64,000 nt of DNA from a phage. A program made the translations under genes and the position numbers. The stretch lies in the sequence record PZ452610.1; one strand, 5' to 3'. The notes below the pieces were generated by a model. It was given only the letters and a program-made list of their open reading frames with translations. It made no database searches and was not told where the DNA came from. Shown one piece after another: positions 2,228 through 57,069 of the stretch (the first letter of the stretch is position 1; the number at the start of each line of letters is the position of its first letter).

Positions 2228-2407
2228 TTAACCCTTCTTAAGTAAGTCGTAAAAACCACCGTTCACATGTTTAGGAGCAGAAACCCGACGAGTAGACAGA
2301 CGATGACATTCAGGGCAAACATCGTTTTCTCGTTCAGAAATCCTTTTAATTTTTTCATATTCATGACCACAATCTTCAGATTGACATTTATAATCGTATA
2401 ACGGCAT
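2228..2407 (-). CDS. FmdB-family zinc-ribbon protein, 59 aa (below ORF-track cutoff)
   Basis: Hand translation MPLYDYKCQSEDCGHEYEKIKRISERENDVCPECHRLSTRRVSAPKHVNGGFYDLLKKG; CxxC...CPxC ribbon; SD AAGGAA before ATG 2407. Confidence 0.6.
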   Translation of the reverse strand: MPLYDYKCQSEDCGHEYEKIKRISERENDVCPECHRLSTRRVSAPKHVNGGFYDLLKKG

Positions 2408-2409
2408 TA

Positions 2410-2820
2410 TTATTCCTTAAAATGTGCTTTCAACATTTGATACAAAGACCATGCCTGGTCATTATTTTTGATAGTAATCGTCATCACAGGAAATTCAGAC
2501 AATTCATCAAGTTCACCAGAATCTTGCTCTTCGGACGCTTGATATGGATTTCCAACTTCGTCAAAGAACTCTGCTTCATTAGTGGAGAGCCAAATAAAGT
2601 TTTCATCAAGAATATCACCGCCTGTTGCGTATCCAACTGTGCCAGTAGATGTCACAATTTTAGTAGGACGACCAAGATGGTCAACATCTAATACTTTAAA
2701 TGGTTCCATGCCAAGACGTCGTGCATAAATCCCATTATCAGTGTGGTCTTTAATAAACTCTTCTTGGGCACGTTTATCTTTAAATTGGTACCATGAGTTA
2801 ACGCGGAATTTATTAGCCAT
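2410..2820 (-). CDS. Hypothetical acidic protein, about 136 aa
   Basis: Track ORF starts at TTG 2838; ATG at 2820 (MANKF...) has SD GAAGGAAA, preferred start. Confidence 0.55.
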
Positions 2821-3047
2821 TAGTAAGTTTCCTTCCAATAAGTTGTACCGTTTTCAGTGATTTCACGGAAGATACCATAGATGGGCATTTCATCGCCAAG
2901 TTTTTCGTAAACGTAAACCACTTCGGTGTAGCATAAAAATTCGGTCCAGTTTTTCTGTACAACAACTAAATCAGGATTAAACAGAACATCTTCAAACTCA
3001 TCGATGTTTGAATCGGTAGTTACGTTTTTAATGATTTGACGTTTCAT
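2820..3047 (-). CDS. Hypothetical protein, about 75 aa
   Basis: ATG at 3047 (MKRQIIKN...) preceded by SD AGAGGAGA; stop overlaps next start. Confidence 0.5.
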
Positions 3048-3104
3048 AATATTCTCCTCTTGTTTTGATAGGTCTATAGTATCATAGACCATAGTTGTTG
3101 TACA

Positions 3105-3629
3105 TCATTTTAGCAAAATAAAATCAACTTGTTCTGCCAATGAACGTCTAAACATTAATTGACAACTTCCGAGTATGAAATCAGGTGCTTCATAGACCGC
3201 GATGTAGTATCCTTTAGCTTTCAAGAGTTCAACATCCACTTGGTCATCAAACCATGCATAAACCGCGTCAACACTTTCAAATCCAAAATAGAACCCTTGA
3301 GCCCAATCTTCACTCAATTCAAATGTGTACTCAATTCTATGGTATCTTAAGATATTTTGTTCAAGGAGTTTGTCTTCATTTACTGTAGGACGATTAGGGA
3401 CATTATAGTTGTCGCCGTGATGGTAGAAGTTACCTGAGAGTATTCCATGCTTATCAAGGAATTCCCATGTTTCTTCAGAGTTGTCGGTGCCTGACCAACC
3501 GTACGGCGAGCGAGGTTCTTTATTCCAAGAGGTTTCCCAAATTCTGACGGCTTTACCGTCTTCGATAGCAATTCCTGGTAATGATTCACGTTGAGTACAA
3601 AAACTACGTTCTACGCGGTAAACTAACAT
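3105..3629 (-). CDS. Hypothetical protein, 174 aa
   Basis: ATG 3629 with SD GAGGAG; early promoter immediately upstream. Confidence 0.6.
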   Translation of the reverse strand: MLVYRVERSFCTQRESLPGIAIEDGKAVRIWETSWNKEPRSPYGWSGTDNSEETWEFLDKHGILSGNFYHHGDNYNVPNRPTVNEDKLLEQNILRYHRIEYTFELSEDWAQGFYFGFESVDAVYAWFDDQVDVELLKAKGYYIAVYEAPDFILGSCQLMFRRSLAEQVDFILLK

Positions 3630-5880: not shown

Positions 5881-7194
5881 TCAAATAAAATGGACGTCAA
5901 AACGACCACGAGTCGTGCCGACATACAATAACTGTTTAGCTAATTCTGAATCGGCATAATGGATACACGGTGTATAAACAAAGGCCGTGTCAACAGACAT
6001 ACCCTGGGCCTTATGGAAGGTTGATACAGGTAGTGCCTTCACCTTAGTGAACATACGTTTAGCATCCCAGAATTCGCTCCATGGAGCTTTACCGCCTTTA
6101 TTCCAGAATTTATATGTTTCTGCGGTCTTAGCCAAAAACAAATTGAATTTATAAAGCTCTTCTTCAGAAGAAATAACCTTTATATCTTCACGGATGTATT
6201 CTTCATCATCACTATATGTTTCTACTGTAAGATTCCAGTATCGTATCATATATTCGCCTGAAACACCGCGTGCTTTAACGAATGTAGACGTTTCTACAGC
6301 ATCTCGAATACGAACGAATTGCCCGTTATTGAAAAGCATTTCGGTCATATTTTTGCCATCTAGCTTATATGTCTTAGTAAATGGCTCTTGTAGAACAATG
6401 ACTTCGTCTTTAATAAATGGCTTTTCTGTTTCGAGAAGTTTTCGGCGAATAATTGAATTTAACTTGTCCACCGACTTATTTGTGAATGCCATCATTCGAT
6501 TTTCGAAAAGGTCTTCAGGAGTTTTAACGACGTTAAAATAGTTCATCATATACGATTTAAGGTCTGTATATCCATGAACACCGTGCCCATCAACTACTTT
6601 ATCGTAAATCCATTTGCCATTACGAATATCAGTCGCAACATCAATAATTGGCGCATTGCTACGTTTAACTTCTGTAAGGTTGCATTGCACGAAGTCTTTG
6701 TGAGTGAAGAAAGGACTTAGATACGCAGTTGATTCGCCTGGGTCTACCGGACGAATCTGGCATCGGTCGCCGATTCCAATTACTGTGCACCATTTAGGGA
6801 TACTAGCTAACATTATTTTAAACAGAGGACGGTCGCACATTGACGCTTCATCAAATAACAGTACACGACACAAGGCTAAGTCGGGAACCTTTTTCTGTTC
6901 AAACAATACGTTTTCTTCGTATGTAGTTGGGTTGATTTTAAGAATGCTATGAATAGTCGATGCTTCTTGACCCGCAAGTTTGCTTAGAACCTTTTTAGCA
7001 GCATGTGTAGGGGCTGCTAAAATAATACCTGATTCTCCGGCAGAAATAAGAGCTTCAACGATGAATCTAGTAAGGGTTGTTTTACCTGTACCAGCAGGCC
7101 CATTAATAGTTACGTGATGTTTCTTTTCTTTAATAGCGTTCATAACAACGTTGAAGGCGTTTTTCTGGCCTTCAGTCAAATCATCAAATGTCAT
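5881..7194 (-). CDS. dda: Dda DNA helicase (SF1B)
   Basis: 437 aa; N-terminus MTFDDLTEGQKNAFNVVMNAIKEKKHHVTINGPAGTGKTT closely matches T4 Dda as I recall it; Walker A present. Confidence 0.95.
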   Translation of the reverse strand: MTFDDLTEGQKNAFNVVMNAIKEKKHHVTINGPAGTGKTTLTRFIVEALISAGESGIILAAPTHAAKKVLSKLAGQEASTIHSILKINPTTYEENVLFEQKKVPDLALCRVLLFDEASMCDRPLFKIMLASIPKWCTVIGIGDRCQIRPVDPGESTAYLSPFFTHKDFVQCNLTEVKRSNAPIIDVATDIRNGKWIYDKVVDGHGVHGYTDLKSYMMNYFNVVKTPEDLFENRMMAFTNKSVDKLNSIIRRKLLETEKPFIKDEVIVLQEPFTKTYKLDGKNMTEMLFNNGQFVRIRDAVETSTFVKARGVSGEYMIRYWNLTVETYSDDEEYIREDIKVISSEEELYKFNLFLAKTAETYKFWNKGGKAPWSEFWDAKRMFTKVKALPVSTFHKAQGMSVDTAFVYTPCIHYADSELAKQLLYVGTTRGRFDVHFI

Positions 7195-7502
7195 CGTAAA
7201 GTCCCTGCAATTGGAATACTAACAATACGGCCTGTGTCCAGGATTCGTTGATACAATCTTTGCGTCTCCGCATCTAGTTTAACGTGTTTCATTTCAAGCT
7301 TATTAAACCAGAACTTACGCGGAGTTTCGACCATTCTTAGAACTCCCATTTTTAAATCTGTTTTATACTGTGTTTTCAAAGTATCGAAAACTTTATCTGC
7401 AATATCCTTTCTAAAAAATACTGCAGGACGATGCTCATCAAGTGGAACCGGGACAGTAAATCCTTCCATATCTCGATAAACTATTGCATATACATAAACC
7501 AT
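7191..7502 (-). CDS. Hypothetical protein, 103 aa (dda.1 position)
   Basis: ORF between dda and the srd-like gene; start overlaps dda... stop. Confidence 0.5.
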   Translation of the reverse strand: MVYVYAIVYRDMEGFTVPVPLDEHRPAVFFRKDIADKVFDTLKTQYKTDLKMGVLRMVETPRKFWFNKLEMKHVKLDAETQRLYQRILDTGRIVSIPIAGTLR

Positions 7503-7504
7503 AA

Positions 7505-8251
7505 TTAACCTTTAATCAGTTGGAATAATGATGCGCTAAGTGGTAAGCCACGTTTCAATTTTAATTTACCAATGAAACCAATCTTTTCAAAACGTTGCAG
7601 ACCTTGGATAACTTTATCATATGTATCGAAAAGCGATTCAGCGTCAGTTAATTTAGTTTTAGTTTTCCAGTCAGAGCCTTTAAGAAGAACGTTGAGTTTA
7701 GTAAGTTCATGGCCTTCTGCTTGATGTGAGCCATTAATGCGTGCTTTCAAAGCAACAATTCTAAGTTTAGATTCGTTAGATAAAGGTTGATTTTTCATCA
7801 TGTTCGCCATATGCTTAACACGATTTTCACGTTTTGCTCGGATTTTTAAAATAGTACCATAAACCTTTTTGATTTGGGCCCATTTCTTCTCGTCGAGATT
7901 AAGTTTCTCTACTTTACGGGCCGAAGGATTGGCGATACGTCTTGCAATGGCATCGCGTTTCCCAATAAGCTCTTCTAATGTTAAATCAGAACGAGCGGTG
8001 TTATATTTTTTCTTAACCGGGATAACATTACCTTTAATGTAGCCTATATCATTATTAAAACGTTCTAAGGATAATTTCTCACCTTCAACAGAGTTATTAA
8101 AAGATTCACCTGAGTAAGCGCAGACCTTTTGATCAAGAATGTTTTTAAGGTAATTAAAGTCTAAGTTAAAATCCTTAGAGCGTCTCTTCGCAGAAGCTCT
8201 GGTGTGGTCAAGACGACGATTGATTTTGTTAATTTTATTATTTGATAACAT
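7505..8251 (-). CDS. Basic 248-aa protein at the T4 srd position; possible Srd-like factor
   Basis: Lys/Arg-rich; size and position match T4 srd (about 250 aa); contains a CxYSG...N..K segment resembling a degenerate HNH motif. Confidence 0.4.
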   Translation of the reverse strand: MLSNNKINKINRRLDHTRASAKRRSKDFNLDFNYLKNILDQKVCAYSGESFNNSVEGEKLSLERFNNDIGYIKGNVIPVKKKYNTARSDLTLEELIGKRDAIARRIANPSARKVEKLNLDEKKWAQIKKVYGTILKIRAKRENRVKHMANMMKNQPLSNESKLRIVALKARINGSHQAEGHELTKLNVLLKGSDWKTKTKLTDAESLFDTYDKVIQGLQRFEKIGFIGKLKLKRGLPLSASLFQLIKG

Positions 8252-8304
8252 AATATTTTCCTCTGTCTTACGGACGTTAAGGTCATTTAGCTGATAAGCT
8301 TATA

Positions 8305-8335
8305 ATATCATGCCCTCAGGTAGTGTACACTCTTT
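8305..8335 (-). promoter_or_regulatory. Early promoter variant (GTGTAC - 17 nt - TATTAT) upstream of the srd-like gene
   Basis: Minus strand GTGTACACTACCTGAGGGCATGATATTATAAG. Confidence 0.4.
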
Positions 8336-8404
8336 TTTCGTAAAATGCTTTAATTTTTTATGTGTTATAATGGTTCTGAGTTCCATCCGGTTATTCCAAT
8401 TCAG

Positions 8405-9013
8405 TCAGTAACTGACAATAGACAGATTCCAGATTGTATAACGTCCATCTTGAATAATAGAATCTACACGCAGTGTAGTCCCTATAGGGAGCATAAATTC
8501 ACATTCGTCAGATATAAGTCTAGCATTAGACCGTCTTGTCGCTTCAGGGAAAGCTCCATTGAACTCACAAGATGGCGCAGCCAGAATCATGTTAAGCATA
8601 TGTTCACGGAAGTTGAAAGCAAATGGTGCATCTTTGATGCAGAACATATTAAATGTTCCGTAAAAATTATACGAAGCAAAGTTACGTGCTACACCGAACA
8701 CTGGACTGAAGCTCATTACTCTGTCAAATTTAATAATACTACCAATGCCTTTATCATCAAGTGTAGCCATAGTTTTCTTAGAGATTCCACGATACATTGT
8801 CTCAGGAACAGAAGACGACCAATTTCTACGAACAATTGCACTTAAATCTTTTTGGATGCTATCAGGCTTGTTTTCCATACACTGCCATAGTACACTTTGT
8901 TCAATGTCACTGAATTGCTCATCGATTTTGTACTGAAGCATATCTTGATAATCCGGGCATTGAGCACGACGAACCATTTCTTCAATTTCACACTCGTTAT
9001 ACGGCATAAACAT
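8405..9013 (-). CDS. modA: ADP-ribosyltransferase ModA-like
   Basis: 202 aa; R (YRGIS) ... S (SFSP) ... E-x-E (DECEF) arrangement of R-S-E ARTs; paralog of next gene; T4 map position. Confidence 0.6.
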   Translation of the reverse strand: MFMPYNECEIEEMVRRAQCPDYQDMLQYKIDEQFSDIEQSVLWQCMENKPDSIQKDLSAIVRRNWSSSVPETMYRGISKKTMATLDDKGIGSIIKFDRVMSFSPVFGVARNFASYNFYGTFNMFCIKDAPFAFNFREHMLNMILAAPSCEFNGAFPEATRRSNARLISDECEFMLPIGTTLRVDSIIQDGRYTIWNLSIVSY

Positions 9014-9070
9014 TTAGGTTTCTCCTGTGGTTGATAAAGGTATAGTATCATCATCGGAAGAGTTTGTACA

Positions 9071-9652
9071 CTAAAAATTCAACATTTTCAAATGAATGAT
9101 TTTGTATAATCGAGATAAAGGGTCATATTCTAAGTCTTCAATTTCCACAATCTCAAATCTAGAGATACCTGAGACCATGTACTCTTGTTCAGATTCAATC
9201 ATATCTAGGACGTCAACACGCGTTTCTTCCATAACATGCTTAGGGTTCTTTCCGGCGAGTACAATGTTAATCATGTTTTGGTAGTAATCAAAAATGAATG
9301 GAGCATTCCTGAGACTAAGAATAGTGTACGTCTGATACTCCCAACTCCCAGAGAATTGACGAGCTGTACTGAAATCAGTTGTGAACGATGTTACTCGTCC
9401 AGGAGACCAATGGCATCCAACAGAAAGAAGGGAAAGACGTTCTACTTCTTCTGGAGTTACACCACGGTAGAGTTCTACTGGTACTGTAGAAGACATATGC
9501 TTACGAACAAGATGGTCTAATTCATAGTGGAAATCCGGGTCTTCCTTAGAATCGGTGCAAGCCCAGAGAATGTTTTGTTCTTGGCGGGTGAATTTGCTAT
9601 CAATCAGATTTGTTAGGTATTCGCGTTCTTGAAGTTCAGATTGACATGTCAT
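9071..9652 (-). CDS. modB: ADP-ribosyltransferase ModB-like
   Basis: 193 aa; YRGV ... SFTTDFS ... SEQEY motifs; paralogous to modA-like ORF. Confidence 0.6.
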   Translation of the reverse strand: MTCQSELQEREYLTNLIDSKFTRQEQNILWACTDSKEDPDFHYELDHLVRKHMSSTVPVELYRGVTPEEVERLSLLSVGCHWSPGRVTSFTTDFSTARQFSGSWEYQTYTILSLRNAPFIFDYYQNMINIVLAGKNPKHVMEETRVDVLDMIESEQEYMVSGISRFEIVEIEDLEYDPLSRLYKIIHLKMLNF

Positions 9653-9679
9653 GATAGACCTCCATTTAAAGATAAGCCT

Positions 9680-9708
9680 ATCATAACACGAGAGGAGGGA
9701 ATGTAAAC
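9680..9708 (-). promoter_or_regulatory. T4-type early promoter (GTTTAC - 17 nt - TATGAT) for modB
   Basis: Minus strand GTTTACATTCCCTCCTCTCGTGTTATGAT. Confidence 0.45.
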
Positions 9709-9872
9709 TACTTTTTAAGCTTTCCTACTAAAGGTCCATCAGGACCAGGTTGTTCTAACATGAATAACGATGCTTTAAAAAGCAATGCCAACCCTTTCAC
9801 CATTCGATACCATGTCTCAAAGTCTTTTTCCTTGATTTCTAGTAAGAATTTCTCTTTCAATTTCTCTTTCAT
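9708..9872 (-). CDS. Possible small ORF, 54 aa (not in ORF track)
   Basis: ATG overlaps stop of upstream ORF (ATGA coupling); translation MKEKLKEKFLLEIKEKDFETWYRM... Confidence 0.3.
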   Translation of the reverse strand: MKEKLKEKFLLEIKEKDFETWYRMVKGLALLFKASLFMLEQPGPDGPLVGKLKK

Positions 9873-10057
9873 TTCCAAGGACTCCATGGCGGAGGGTCGT
9901 CATAATAAGAGGCAAGGTCTTTCAGGGCTTCAACAGGTAAACTAAAGCCGTGTCGTTGTATAATACTATCTAGTTCATCGACAAGTTCACTACGATGAAC
10001 TTTAGGAGCCTCAACTTCAGGCTCATCAAACATACTCATCAAGTCCATATTATTCAC
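9869..10057 (-). CDS. Hypothetical acidic protein, 62 aa
   Basis: ORF in operon context. Confidence 0.45.
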   Translation of the reverse strand: MNNMDLMSMFDEPEVEAPKVHRSELVDELDSIIQRHGFSLPVEALKDLASYYDDPPPWSPWK

Positions 10058-10514
10058 CGAGATAAAAACTAGCCGGTTCAGAAAATGTTTCTAGTGCTAC
10101 ACCTTTTGTCTTAAAAAATTTCCAAATAGCTCGTTGCAAATGGATTAAATCTGCTAATGACGTAATAAAGTATTTTTTGGCAAAATACTTATGGTCTCGC
10201 TTTTCAAACAAGTCTAAACGCTTTTCAGGATTCACATAAACGGCATTTTCCGTAGATTCATAACCTAAGTCCTTTATGCCTTCTTCAAGACTAAACGGAG
10301 AATTTTTAGAATGAGTAATAGCTCCAACTCGCTCTACACGAATTTTGTAACCTTTAGGAATCTGCAATTTGCAGAATTCTTCTACGATATATTGCGGATT
10401 ATTTAGACTTTTGTTAATGAGAATAGCTATTTCTAGTGGAGTCTTATCTTCCACTGGTATATGTTTAAATGACTTGGCTTCAAGCAAATACATTTTAAAT
10501 AGCATAGCATCCAT
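10050..10514 (-). CDS. Hypothetical protein, 154 aa (mrh region of T4 map)
   Basis: ORF in operon context; start overlaps upstream stop. Confidence 0.5.
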   Translation of the reverse strand: MDAMLFKMYLLEAKSFKHIPVEDKTPLEIAILINKSLNNPQYIVEEFCKLQIPKGYKIRVERVGAITHSKNSPFSLEEGIKDLGYESTENAVYVNPEKRLDLFEKRDHKYFAKKYFITSLADLIHLQRAIWKFFKTKGVALETFSEPASFYLGE

Positions 10515-14412: not shown

Positions 14413-15072
14413 TTAACCTCGATTCATAAATGCATTAAATATTTGGTCATCAACAGAAATTTCTAATTCGACTTCAATTGCTTCGGCCTTTTCTTCAGGT
14501 GGTAATTCGTATCCACACACTACAATTTTTTCATCGATATCAAAATATACAGAAGCAATACGATTAATGTTATTTTCAGTTAAGTCCAAATCAACATCAA
14601 CATCTTTTTGGCCTACACTTAGAGGATAACTAATACGGGTTATTTTATTATCTTTAACAAAGAGTCCACCAACATACTCTGTACTACGTTTGAAGTTTAC
14701 ACGTTTCCGAATTGAAAGATATGATACATCTTTACCGTGAGCTCGGCTCATAGGACATAATGAATAGCTAGAATAAGAGATGTCAAATCCTACACCTTCA
14801 ATATGAGCCAACGCGTCATGATTAAACCAATTATAATCATATGCCAAATCCATTATATTGTAATATGTGAAAGGCACAGGATTAACATCATATGTTGTAC
14901 CTTTAAAATCTGCCCAGGCAACGATTTCGTTATCTTTAACAATTACAAAAATTACACCAATATGGTATCCTTTATTATTTTCATTCGGCGTTATATTATA
15001 ACATTGTGCATTAGGAAATTTACCATATTTAAATGGTGCGTTTTTGTGCATATAATAAATCATATTATTCAC
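14413..15072 (-). CDS. Hypothetical protein, 219 aa (61.2 position; candidate AdfA-like anti-DarT factor by synteny only)
   Basis: Position between 61 and sp as for T4 61.2; no motif recognised. Confidence 0.5.
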   Translation of the reverse strand: MNNMIYYMHKNAPFKYGKFPNAQCYNITPNENNKGYHIGVIFVIVKDNEIVAWADFKGTTYDVNPVPFTYYNIMDLAYDYNWFNHDALAHIEGVGFDISYSSYSLCPMSRAHGKDVSYLSIRKRVNFKRSTEYVGGLFVKDNKITRISYPLSVGQKDVDVDLDLTENNINRIASVYFDIDEKIVVCGYELPPEEKAEAIEVELEISVDDQIFNAFMNRG

Positions 15073-55079: not shown

Positions 55080-55661
55080 TTATAACAACCCTGTCAAATC
55101 ATTCCAATGCTTCCGGCATAATGACACGTATCTATCGGTATCACCAATTTCAATTTGACTGCCATCTGTAATTGGAAGTCCGTCTTCCGTGACTCTAGCT
55201 ACCATTGTGGCCTTTTTACCGCAATGACAGACACCTTTAAGTTCAACAAGCTTATCGGCAATAGCCATTAATGCTTGAGAACCTTCAAATAGATTACCTT
55301 TAAAATCTGTTCGTAGTCCATATGCCATTACTGGCACATTGTATACGTCAACAATACGACTAAGTTGATACACCTTTTCAGTAGTTAAGAACTGAGCTTC
55401 GTCAACAAATACACAGTGAATATCCTTTTGTGCTGCAGCCCATTTATAGAATTCAAAGATATCCATGTCTTTTGTAATTATATTGGCATCCTGACGAATA
55501 CCAATACGAGAGACTATTTCACCTTTTGAATCACGAGTATCAATAGCCGGTTTAAGAACTAATACACCCATGCCACGTTCTTTATAGTTATGTGCGGCAG
55601 TAAGTAATGAAGAAGACTTACCAGCGTTCATAGCGGCATATGTAAAAATTAAACTAGCCAT
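55080..55661 (-). CDS. tk: Thymidine kinase
   Basis: 193 aa; Walker A AAMNAGKSS, zinc ribbon CHCGKK...CRKHW. Confidence 0.95.
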   Translation of the reverse strand: MASLIFTYAAMNAGKSSSLLTAAHNYKERGMGVLVLKPAIDTRDSKGEIVSRIGIRQDANIITKDMDIFEFYKWAAAQKDIHCVFVDEAQFLTTEKVYQLSRIVDVYNVPVMAYGLRTDFKGNLFEGSQALMAIADKLVELKGVCHCGKKATMVARVTEDGLPITDGSQIEIGDTDRYVSLCRKHWNDLTGLL

Positions 55662-55670
55662 AAGAGTCCC

Positions 55671-55853
55671 TTATAGTGAATTCACGTAGTCAATGAGTTC
55701 TTGTTCTTTCCTGTCAAATGATTCCAACAATGCTTGATATTCTTCATCTGTTAAAGGAGCATATTCATCGTACGCATTGGTGGCTGCTTGCTCATCCAAT
55801 AGGTCATGGATAAGTTCGAATAGTTTAGCTTTCTCTTCTTTAGTTAATTTCAT
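55671..55853 (-). CDS. Hypothetical acidic protein, 60 aa (tk.1 position)
   Basis: ORF. Confidence 0.45.
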   Translation of the reverse strand: MKLTKEEKAKLFELIHDLLDEQAATNAYDEYAPLTDEEYQALLESFDRKEQELIDYVNSL

Positions 55854-56056
55854 TTAGGTTCACCTTCTTTAACGAAATCTGGGTAAGGGTAAAATCCTGA
55901 GTAAAACCCTTCACCTTTATGATTGCTACAACCTTTGTTCGAACAGTAACACCAATAATCAAAATCACAAGCCATTTCGTCATTGCATAAAGCAAAAACT
56001 ACAGGCCATTCGCATTTTTCGCATTTAGCACCTGTAAGAATTTTTGTTTGACTCAT
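55850..56056 (-). CDS. Cys-rich small protein, about 68 aa (tk.2 position)
   Basis: CEKCEWP...CNDEMACDFDYWCYCSNKGCSNH; ATG 56056 overlaps upstream stop. Confidence 0.45.
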   Translation of the reverse strand: MSQTKILTGAKCEKCEWPVVFALCNDEMACDFDYWCYCSNKGCSNHKGEGFYSGFYPYPDFVKEGEPK

Positions 56057-56265
56057 AACCATGTCACCTTTAAGCAATATTCTTCTACATGTTGTTTACG
56101 GCCTTTCTTATCAATAAAGGTATATTCAACGAATGTTCCGATGTAGTCTTTATCTACATCATGTGGACTATTAATTGGACATTTGGTACGACAAATGCGT
56201 TCCCATTGACGAATAATTACTGCCTTATTCTTTGGGTCATATGGATGTGGATAATGTATATTCAT
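56053..56265 (-). CDS. Hypothetical protein, about 70 aa (tk.3 position)
   Basis: ATG 56265 overlaps stop of the macro-domain gene. Confidence 0.45.
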   Translation of the reverse strand: MNIHYPHPYDPKNKAVIIRQWERICRTKCPINSPHDVDKDYIGTFVEYTFIDKKGRKQHVEEYCLKVTWL

Positions 56266-56759
56266 AATAACGGTTCCCAATCAACAATCACAATTTCTAG
56301 TTTAGTGGAATACGTATCTAAAATCTCTTCGATGACATCCCAGTTTCCGCCACCGATACCTGCACCAATTCTTGGCATATAAATTACAGGCTTTGTTATC
56401 TTATTCTTTCCGAATTCATTTAATTCTATTATACAATTCATTAAAGCAGAGTACTCAAAATTAGGTCCCGGCTCAAACTGCGTATAAAGATTAAAGCAAT
56501 AAGCTTTATGGGTCTTAAAATATTTTTCATAAACCGAATAAGTCCCGAGTTTAGACTCGTCTCCGAATTCGGTTTGAAGTTTATCGGCTTCCAGAATTTT
56601 TGGATAAGCCTTTGCTAATTGTCCTGCCACACCGGCGCCCATTGTATGAAAACAATTACACCCATGAGCAATATTATTACCTTTAGAAAACAGGGCGACA
56701 ATATCGCCCTTGATATAGTTTTTAATCACTTGCTGCAAGTCCTCTAGTATAAGAGTCAA
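56262..56759 (-). CDS. Macro-domain protein, putative ADP-ribose binding/hydrolase (tk.4 position); non-ATG start
   Basis: 165 aa; Gly-rich motifs NIAHGCNCFHTMGAGVAGQL and PRIGAGIGGGNW typical of macro domains. Confidence 0.65.
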   Translation of the reverse strand: MTLILEDLQQVIKNYIKGDIVALFSKGNNIAHGCNCFHTMGAGVAGQLAKAYPKILEADKLQTEFGDESKLGTYSVYEKYFKTHKAYCFNLYTQFEPGPNFEYSALMNCIIELNEFGKNKITKPVIYMPRIGAGIGGGNWDVIEEILDTYSTKLEIVIVDWEPLL

Positions 56760-57069
56760 CTAGACGGTCCACCATAGAATTGCATGCTGCCTTATCTTTA
56801 GGTTCCGCCACCGAGCATTCTAATATTTGCCATTTTTTATAGTATCTTTTAATTAAGGTAGACGCCTTGAACCTACTAGACGCCCCATCTTTTTCTCCGT
56901 CTTTATACGCGTATAACAATTTTTGTGAAAAATCTACTTTACACTCTTGACTTTTACCACAATAATCAGACGCCGTTCTGTTTGTATACTCCGTTACATC
57001 AGTATATGTAGTATTAGCAAGAGCGTTAAATGAAACCAAGCTAACTATTAAAGCCAACATTTTGGTCAT
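56722..57069 (-). CDS. vs: Secreted protein, 115 aa, at the T4 vs position
   Basis: Same length as T4 Vs; N-terminal signal peptide MTKMLALIVSLVSFNALA. Confidence 0.45.
   Translation of the reverse strand: MTKMLALIVSLVSFNALANTTYTDVTEYTNRTASDYCGKSQECKVDFSQKLLYAYKDGEKDGASSRFKASTLIKRYYKKWQILECSVAEPKDKAACNSMVDRLVDSYTRGLAASD

Follow-up and report, generated by a model that had tools for sequence, protein, structure and literature searches.

The phage sequence record PZ452610.1 carries, in the 64,000-nucleotide (nt) stretch analysed here (the window), two adjacent genes for small ADP-ribosyltransferases (ARTs) and, far from them, a macro-domain gene. It is highly probable that the pair consists of RB69-like modA and modB, encoding arginine-specific mono-ADP-ribosyltransferases, and that the distant macro-domain gene is an ortholog of T4 tk.4 (adfM) and not their eraser. 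The window is a T-even-type phage segment of about 37% G+C, and nearly all of its genes lie on the minus strand. The two ART open reading frames (ORFs) are modA and modB of an RB69-like Mosigvirus, already annotated publicly, and are not a new find. Since these genes are already public, with family and annotation, and the role of the macro-domain gene has been assigned experimentally in T4, the results have little weight as a discovery. Their useful outcome is a negative one: finding ARTs and a macrodomain together in a T-even genome is no ground for assuming a writer/eraser pair.

Identity of the ADP-ribosyltransferase pair

The identification draws on homology and fold, on conserved catalytic residues, on synteny and on paralogy. 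At the DNA level, positions 7000–10500 of the window are 100% identical to Escherichia coli O157 typing phages 3, 6 and 13 (Mosigvirus) and about 98% identical to RB69. The counterparts of both ORFs are annotated as modA and modB in the RB69 record (NP_861708, NP_861709), and in the RefSeq entry of typing phage 3 both genes are called 'RNA polymerase ADP-ribosylase', with coordinates equal to those of the window ORFs. The encoded proteins are nearly or fully identical to those already annotated in the O157 typing phages and RB69. Along the minus strand the modB-position gene is followed by the modA-position gene, srd, dda.1 and dda (Table 1), and T4 has the same locus order, i.e. dda, dda.1, srd, modA, modB. 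T4, RB69, Bp7 and VR7 all have the Mod locus in the early region, flanked by srd and modA.2.

The initial annotation had described two neighbouring paralogs with the Arg, Ser and Glu-x-Glu (R-S-E) arrangement of ModA/ModB-type ARTs. Both ORFs are present on the minus strand, and the motifs named for them are found in their translations: TMYRGISKK, VMSFSPV and SDECEFM in the modA-position protein, ELYRGVTPE, VTSFTTDFSTARQ and ESEQEYM in the modB-position protein. The two proteins are paralogs by BLASTP (32% identity over 147 amino acids (aa), E 2e-26), and the ModA/ModB-type identity was borne out, in agreement with the existing public annotation.

The motif arrangement by itself is a poor guide. 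A loose R..S..ExE pattern occurs in 10 of the 67 window ORFs of at least 120 aa and in 14–31% of shuffles of the two proteins, and it is weak evidence because it is so frequent in other ORFs and in shuffles. A strict pattern, [YFW]RG..S-x-[ST]..E-x-E with family spacing, is found in the window only in the two ART ORFs and in 0.1–0.2% of shuffles. Homology is far stronger evidence of ART identity than the motif pattern. Both proteins match PHROG 832, 'RNA polymerase ADP-ribosylase' (E 4e-38 and, for the modB-position protein, 6e-38), and the modB-position protein also matches PHROG 26695 (E 4e-41). BLASTP comparisons with T4 ModA (P39421) and ModB (P39423) give E values of 1e-20 to 3e-35, apart from a weaker match of the modB-position protein to T4 ModA (28% identity, E 2e-10); to T4 ModB this protein is 38% identical (E 1e-27). 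When a profile was searched against 1.84 billion representative proteins, 124 relatives were returned.

The ADP-ribosyltransferase fold of the R-S-E clade was found for both proteins, and residues 7–63 of the phage ARTs form an N-terminal four-helix region. A search of PDB sequences with each ART gave only chance matches (ArdA, nucleophosmin, Cas9; E 0.02–0.5) and no structure of a close relative. Among about 60 small relatives there is little or no variation in the R-G pair, at the first Ser of S-x-[ST] or in E-x-E; the only exceptions are one truncated sequence without E-x-E and one Ala at the [ST] position. The R-S-E positions of both window proteins align with R72 and E163/E165 of T4 ModA and with R73/G74 of T4 ModB; more specifically, R63/G64 of the modB-position protein align with R73/G74. 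In T4 the ModB R73/G74 double mutant serves as an inactive control and the R73A/G74A mutant lowers burst size (PMC10468400), while ModA E165A is inactive in vivo (PMC11404850). A review table, from which the T4 ModA residue numbers are taken, lists R72, S109, F127, F129 and E165 (PMC8120803), and in the alignment all five are identical in the modA-position protein. By alignment and predicted strand, the canonical S-x-S of T4 ModA falls at S96/S98, which equals S101/S103 of the window protein, while the table gives S109. The modB-position protein and T4 ModB have in common a Tyr at the position of T4 ModA F129 and the sequence S-F-T-T.

Divergence from T4 and the probable targets

The products of modA and modB would be small, with a single domain and about 200 aa, and would belong to the arginine-specific mono-ADP-ribosyltransferases of the R-S-E (cholera-toxin-like) clade; by analogy with T4 they are probably expressed early and use nicotinamide adenine dinucleotide (NAD+). 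The Arg and Ser-x-Ser/Thr residues would hold NAD+ and the E-x-E glutamates would catalyse the transfer. Likeness to the T4 enzymes suggests that both window proteins are catalytically active, and E-x-E, a signature of arginine-specific enzymes (PMC8120803), points to arginine as the acceptor. The targets would be arginines on host transcription and translation proteins. T4 ModA acts on Arg265 of RNA polymerase alpha (PMC8120803); T4 ModB acts on S1, EF-Tu and trigger factor and, with NAD-capped RNA, causes 'RNAylation' of S1/L2 (PMC10468400). Note that these targets are known only for the T4 enzymes.

Several results weigh against the assignment to modA and modB with T4-like roles. The Pfam and NCBIfam libraries searched contain no model that matches either ART; PF26816.1 is listed for all ART homologs in precomputed tables. 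The literature searched yielded no biochemical data on RB69-type Mod proteins. Promoter-like sites are not enriched in the window, 15 being found in a scan and 13.5 expected from shuffled sequence; a promoter-like match alone is for this reason weak evidence, and early expression of the ART genes leans on the T4 analogy. The ARTs are only 35–38% identical to their T4 namesakes, whereas dda, dda.1, srd, tk, tk.4 and vs are 66–84% identical. Moreover, T4 ModB gives the modA-position protein a higher score (110 bits) than T4 ModA does (72 bits). A neighbour-joining (NJ) tree of ten proteins of known genomic position gives the topology of positional orthology, and the node that joins T4 ModA with the position-A clade has a bootstrap of 53%.

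It is conceivable, if unlikely, that one or both RB69-type paralogs have a target spectrum unlike that of T4 ModA and ModB, for example one mainly of counter-defence. The gap in identity between the ARTs and their neighbours and the 53% bootstrap, together with the closeness of the modA-position protein to T4 ModB by score, speak for such a shift. From the identity values it follows that the ART genes are local divergence hot spots, which fits the view of phage ARTs as fast-evolving conflict genes put forward by Iyer et al. (PMC9503650). In addition, the volcano plot of a Mokosh type I screen labels bas37_0131 of phage Bas37, which is given as an ortholog of ModA, and Mokosh is countered by T4 Alt (HIDEN-SEQ preprint). 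The signature residues speak for the conventional labels instead: T4 ModA has the S109-equivalent Ser, S-x-S and F-N-F in common with the modA-position protein, and T4 ModB has S-F-T-T and F-[DN]-Y in common with the modB-position protein, in agreement with the modA/modB labels. The BLAST score quartet slightly favours one-to-one orthology (163 vs 154 and 147 for the alternatives), and the position in the gene order is conserved. A slightly more doubtful proposal takes as its starting point that the RB69-type pair evolves several times faster than its neighbours: the pair may act mainly on defences such as Mokosh and not on RNA polymerase alpha or S1 or, less likely, the Tk.4 macrodomain, with its Gln in place of Lys (see below), may have unrecognised activity on protein- or RNA-linked ADP-ribose.

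We retain the assignment to RB69-like modA and modB, with the qualification that one-to-one orthology with T4 ModA and ModB is weakly supported. The targets of the window enzymes are therefore inferred, and it is uncertain which paralog would act on which target. Mod differs so strongly between the lineages of T4 and RB69 that target lists from T4 should not be carried over to RB69-like phages unchecked. The divergence and uncertain orthology of the pair form one of two small leads from this work; the other is an invariant Gln that replaces the T-K lysine of TARG1/DarG in the Tk.4/AdfM family. Along the window, a sharp local divergence hot spot is seen at 8405–9652, relative to 5881–8251 and 55080–57069. 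A 65-sequence NJ tree of family representatives, in which T4 ModA and ModB fall outside a clade of both window paralogs, was set aside as prone to long-branch effects.

The Mod locus holds a pair of genes in Tequatrovirus (T4), Mosigvirus (RB69 and the window), Dhakavirus (Bp7) and Gaprivervirus (VR7). Gelderlandvirus STP4-a, a Salmonella phage, and Karamvirus CC31, an Enterobacter phage, have a single Mod gene there (2501–3133 and 2396–3004, respectively). Because these single-copy genes group with the B type in the ten-protein tree, the comparison suggests that the ModB-like form is ancestral and ModA a derived duplicate.

The macro-domain gene and removal of ADP-ribose

The macro-domain ORF pointed out at 56262–56759 in the initial annotation is real; it is encoded on the minus strand and scores 28.1 bits with Pfam Macro (cut-off 22). 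The true start is probably the GTG at 56729, since this start overlaps the stop codon of the upstream gene vs and close homologs are mostly about 150–157 aa long, several of them exactly 155 aa. The protein has a macro fold of the TARG1/DarG/Poa1p class and is 84% identical to T4 Tk.4, and the gene order tk...tk.4-vs is the same. Transposon sequencing and a clean deletion have shown that T4 tk.4, renamed adfM, is needed on hosts expressing DarTG2, a bacterial system that ADP-ribosylates thymidine in DNA, and AdfM was proposed to take ADP-ribose off DNA (2025 preprint, 10.1101/2025.11.20.689424). By analogy with T4, the window macro protein most likely shields phage DNA from thymidine ADP-ribosylation by DarT2 and is not the eraser of ModA/ModB marks. 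The macrodomain thus belongs to the phage anti-DarTG toolkit.

The catalytic lysine of the T-K motif (TARG1 K84, DarG K80) is absent from the macro protein. In a profile alignment to OARD1/TARG1, an invariant Gln of the Tk.4/AdfM family (motif N-x-Y-T-Q) stands opposite the catalytic Lys84 of TARG1, and a Gly opposite TARG1 Asp125. The alignment was made to TARG1; the equivalence of DarG Lys80 is taken from a review (PMC8120803). If AdfM hydrolyses thymidine-linked ADP-ribose, it probably has a catalytic arrangement unlike that of DarG. Unlike the DarG antitoxin, the 155-aa window protein lacks the C-terminal DarT-binding domain, and the DarG equivalog NF048014 of NCBIfam is matched with 31.6 bits only (cut-off 250), over profile positions 4–146 of 338.

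The ARTs had been described as lying ahead of the macro-domain gene, with a possible writer/eraser relationship. All three genes do lie in the same segment; they are not adjacent, as dozens of genes and a distance of 46.6 kb separate the ARTs from the macro-domain gene (the annotation has 50 features in 30 kb of this stretch). A writer/eraser pair, in which the macro protein reverses ADP-ribosylation by ModA/ModB so as to time or limit the modification, is very unlikely. The three genes share a phage genome and all concern ADP-ribose chemistry, and the sources found report no direct test of Tk.4 on ModA/ModB products. The linkage chemistry known from the literature points elsewhere. T4 ModB products are arginine N-glycosides, which are removed by ARH1 and resist NH2OH and ARH3 (PMC10468400). 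Removal of arginine-linked ADP-ribose is assigned to DraG/ARH enzymes, and macrodomains are assigned the removal of O-esters (TARG1/MacroD class) or of thymidine-linked ADP-ribose in DNA (DarG); no macrodomain is listed with activity on arginine-linked ADP-ribose (PMC8120803). The window macrodomain is of the TARG1/DarG class and does not have the DraG/ARH fold, a mismatch of hydrolase and linkage that is drawn from the literature and not from an assay. In the known reversible pairs DraT/DraG, DarT/DarG and Tre1/Tri1 the genes are adjacent (PMC8120803), unlike the distant genes of the window, for which neither adjacency nor co-transcription was found. The DarTG2 phenotype of T4 tk.4 already explains the presence of the gene. 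Finally, phage records with the macro family number 2845, from many unrelated groups, and those with the Mod family 1081, a difference of at least 1760 records that includes Felixounavirus-, V5- and Pseudomonas-type phages; the two families do not co-occur consistently, as many macro-bearing phage groups lack a Mod match. Taken with the role of Tk.4, these points leave the writer/eraser relation unsupported.

Two further observations concern the counter-defence genes. In the E. coli phages ime09, GiZh, Kha5h and LYE-01 the Tk.4 protein of the tk.4-vs locus is only about 58% identical to the window protein, compared with 84% for that of T4, so there may be two allelic types of the Tk.4 macrodomain among T4-like coliphages. 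The window also encodes a homolog of T4 61.2 (adfA, anti-DarTG1 factor) that is 66% identical to it, with Arg where T4 has His, at the site of R164 in RB69 AdfA (counted from the second Met); Arg at this site marks the RB69-like allele that does not neutralise DarT1 (PMC11257639). With the AdfA homolog and the Tk.4 ortholog the window therefore has at least two DarTG-related counter-defence genes.

Gene features and comparison with known systems

Table 1. Genes and promoter-like sites discussed in the text (positions in the window)
Feature	Position	Strand	Details
promoter-like site upstream of modB-position gene	9680..9707	-	putative; TTTACA, 16 nt, TATGAT with TG extension; 10/12 in consensus scan
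modB-position ADP-ribosyltransferase gene	9071..9652	-	193 aa; R63-G64, S89-F-T91, E155-Q-E157
weaker promoter-like site in 57-nt gap between ART genes	9042..9070	-	putative; TGTACA, 17 nt, TACTAT; 8/12, under scan threshold
modA-position ADP-ribosyltransferase gene	8405..9013	-	202 aa; R75-G76, S101-F-S103, E170-C-E172
srd	7505..8251	-	
dda.1	7191..7502	-	
dda	5881..7194	-	
homolog of T4 61.2 (adfA)	14413..15063	-	
macro-domain gene, T4 tk.4 (adfM) ortholog	56262..56729	-	155 aa from probable GTG start at 56729; maximal ORF to 56759

The modA-position ORF has two in-frame ATGs, at 9013 and 9007, giving 202 and 200 aa; the RB69 annotation uses the second, that of typing phage 3 the first. The first ATG is favoured because AGGAGA stands 8 nt before it. 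At the modB-position gene GGAGG lies 6 nt before the ATG, so that both ART genes have good Shine-Dalgarno sites. Of the two promoter-like sites in Table 1, the one between the ART genes has a TGTACA hexamer identical to that of a site at 8329–8302 before srd. Both are candidate promoters, and together with the T4 analogy they would be consistent with early expression of the pair.

The least probable of the alternatives is that one of the two paralogs is a pseudo-enzyme without catalytic activity or a duplicate in decay: constraint is often lost in one copy after duplication and the ARTs evolve much faster than their neighbours, but no catalytic residue (R-G, S-x-S/T, E-x-E) is missing from either copy, both ORFs are intact with good Shine-Dalgarno sites, and both are kept at 93–100% identity in many Mosigvirus genomes. 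A toxin-antitoxin arrangement of a Mod-like ART with Dmd, described for some Klebsiella phages (PMC9503650), was considered and dropped, dmd being about 6.5 kb away from the pair.

Compared with R-S-E (ARTC) toxins (Vis, Tre1, C3, VIP2/iota, Certhrax, HopU1, SpvB, ExoS), the phage ARTs show 11–19% sequence identity. They differ from these toxins in having the N-terminal four-helix region, and they have neither secretion or translocation domains nor an adjacent immunity or hydrolase gene. With T4 ModA/ModB and RB69 modA/modB the window pair shares the PHROG 832 family, the size, the R-S-ExE residues and, on the strand of the early genes, the location between srd and modA.2. Two differences from T4 were seen: the window genes are separated by a gap with its own promoter-like site, whereas T4 modA and modB overlap by 4 nt, and within E-x-E the modA-position protein has Cys in the middle where T4 has Gln.
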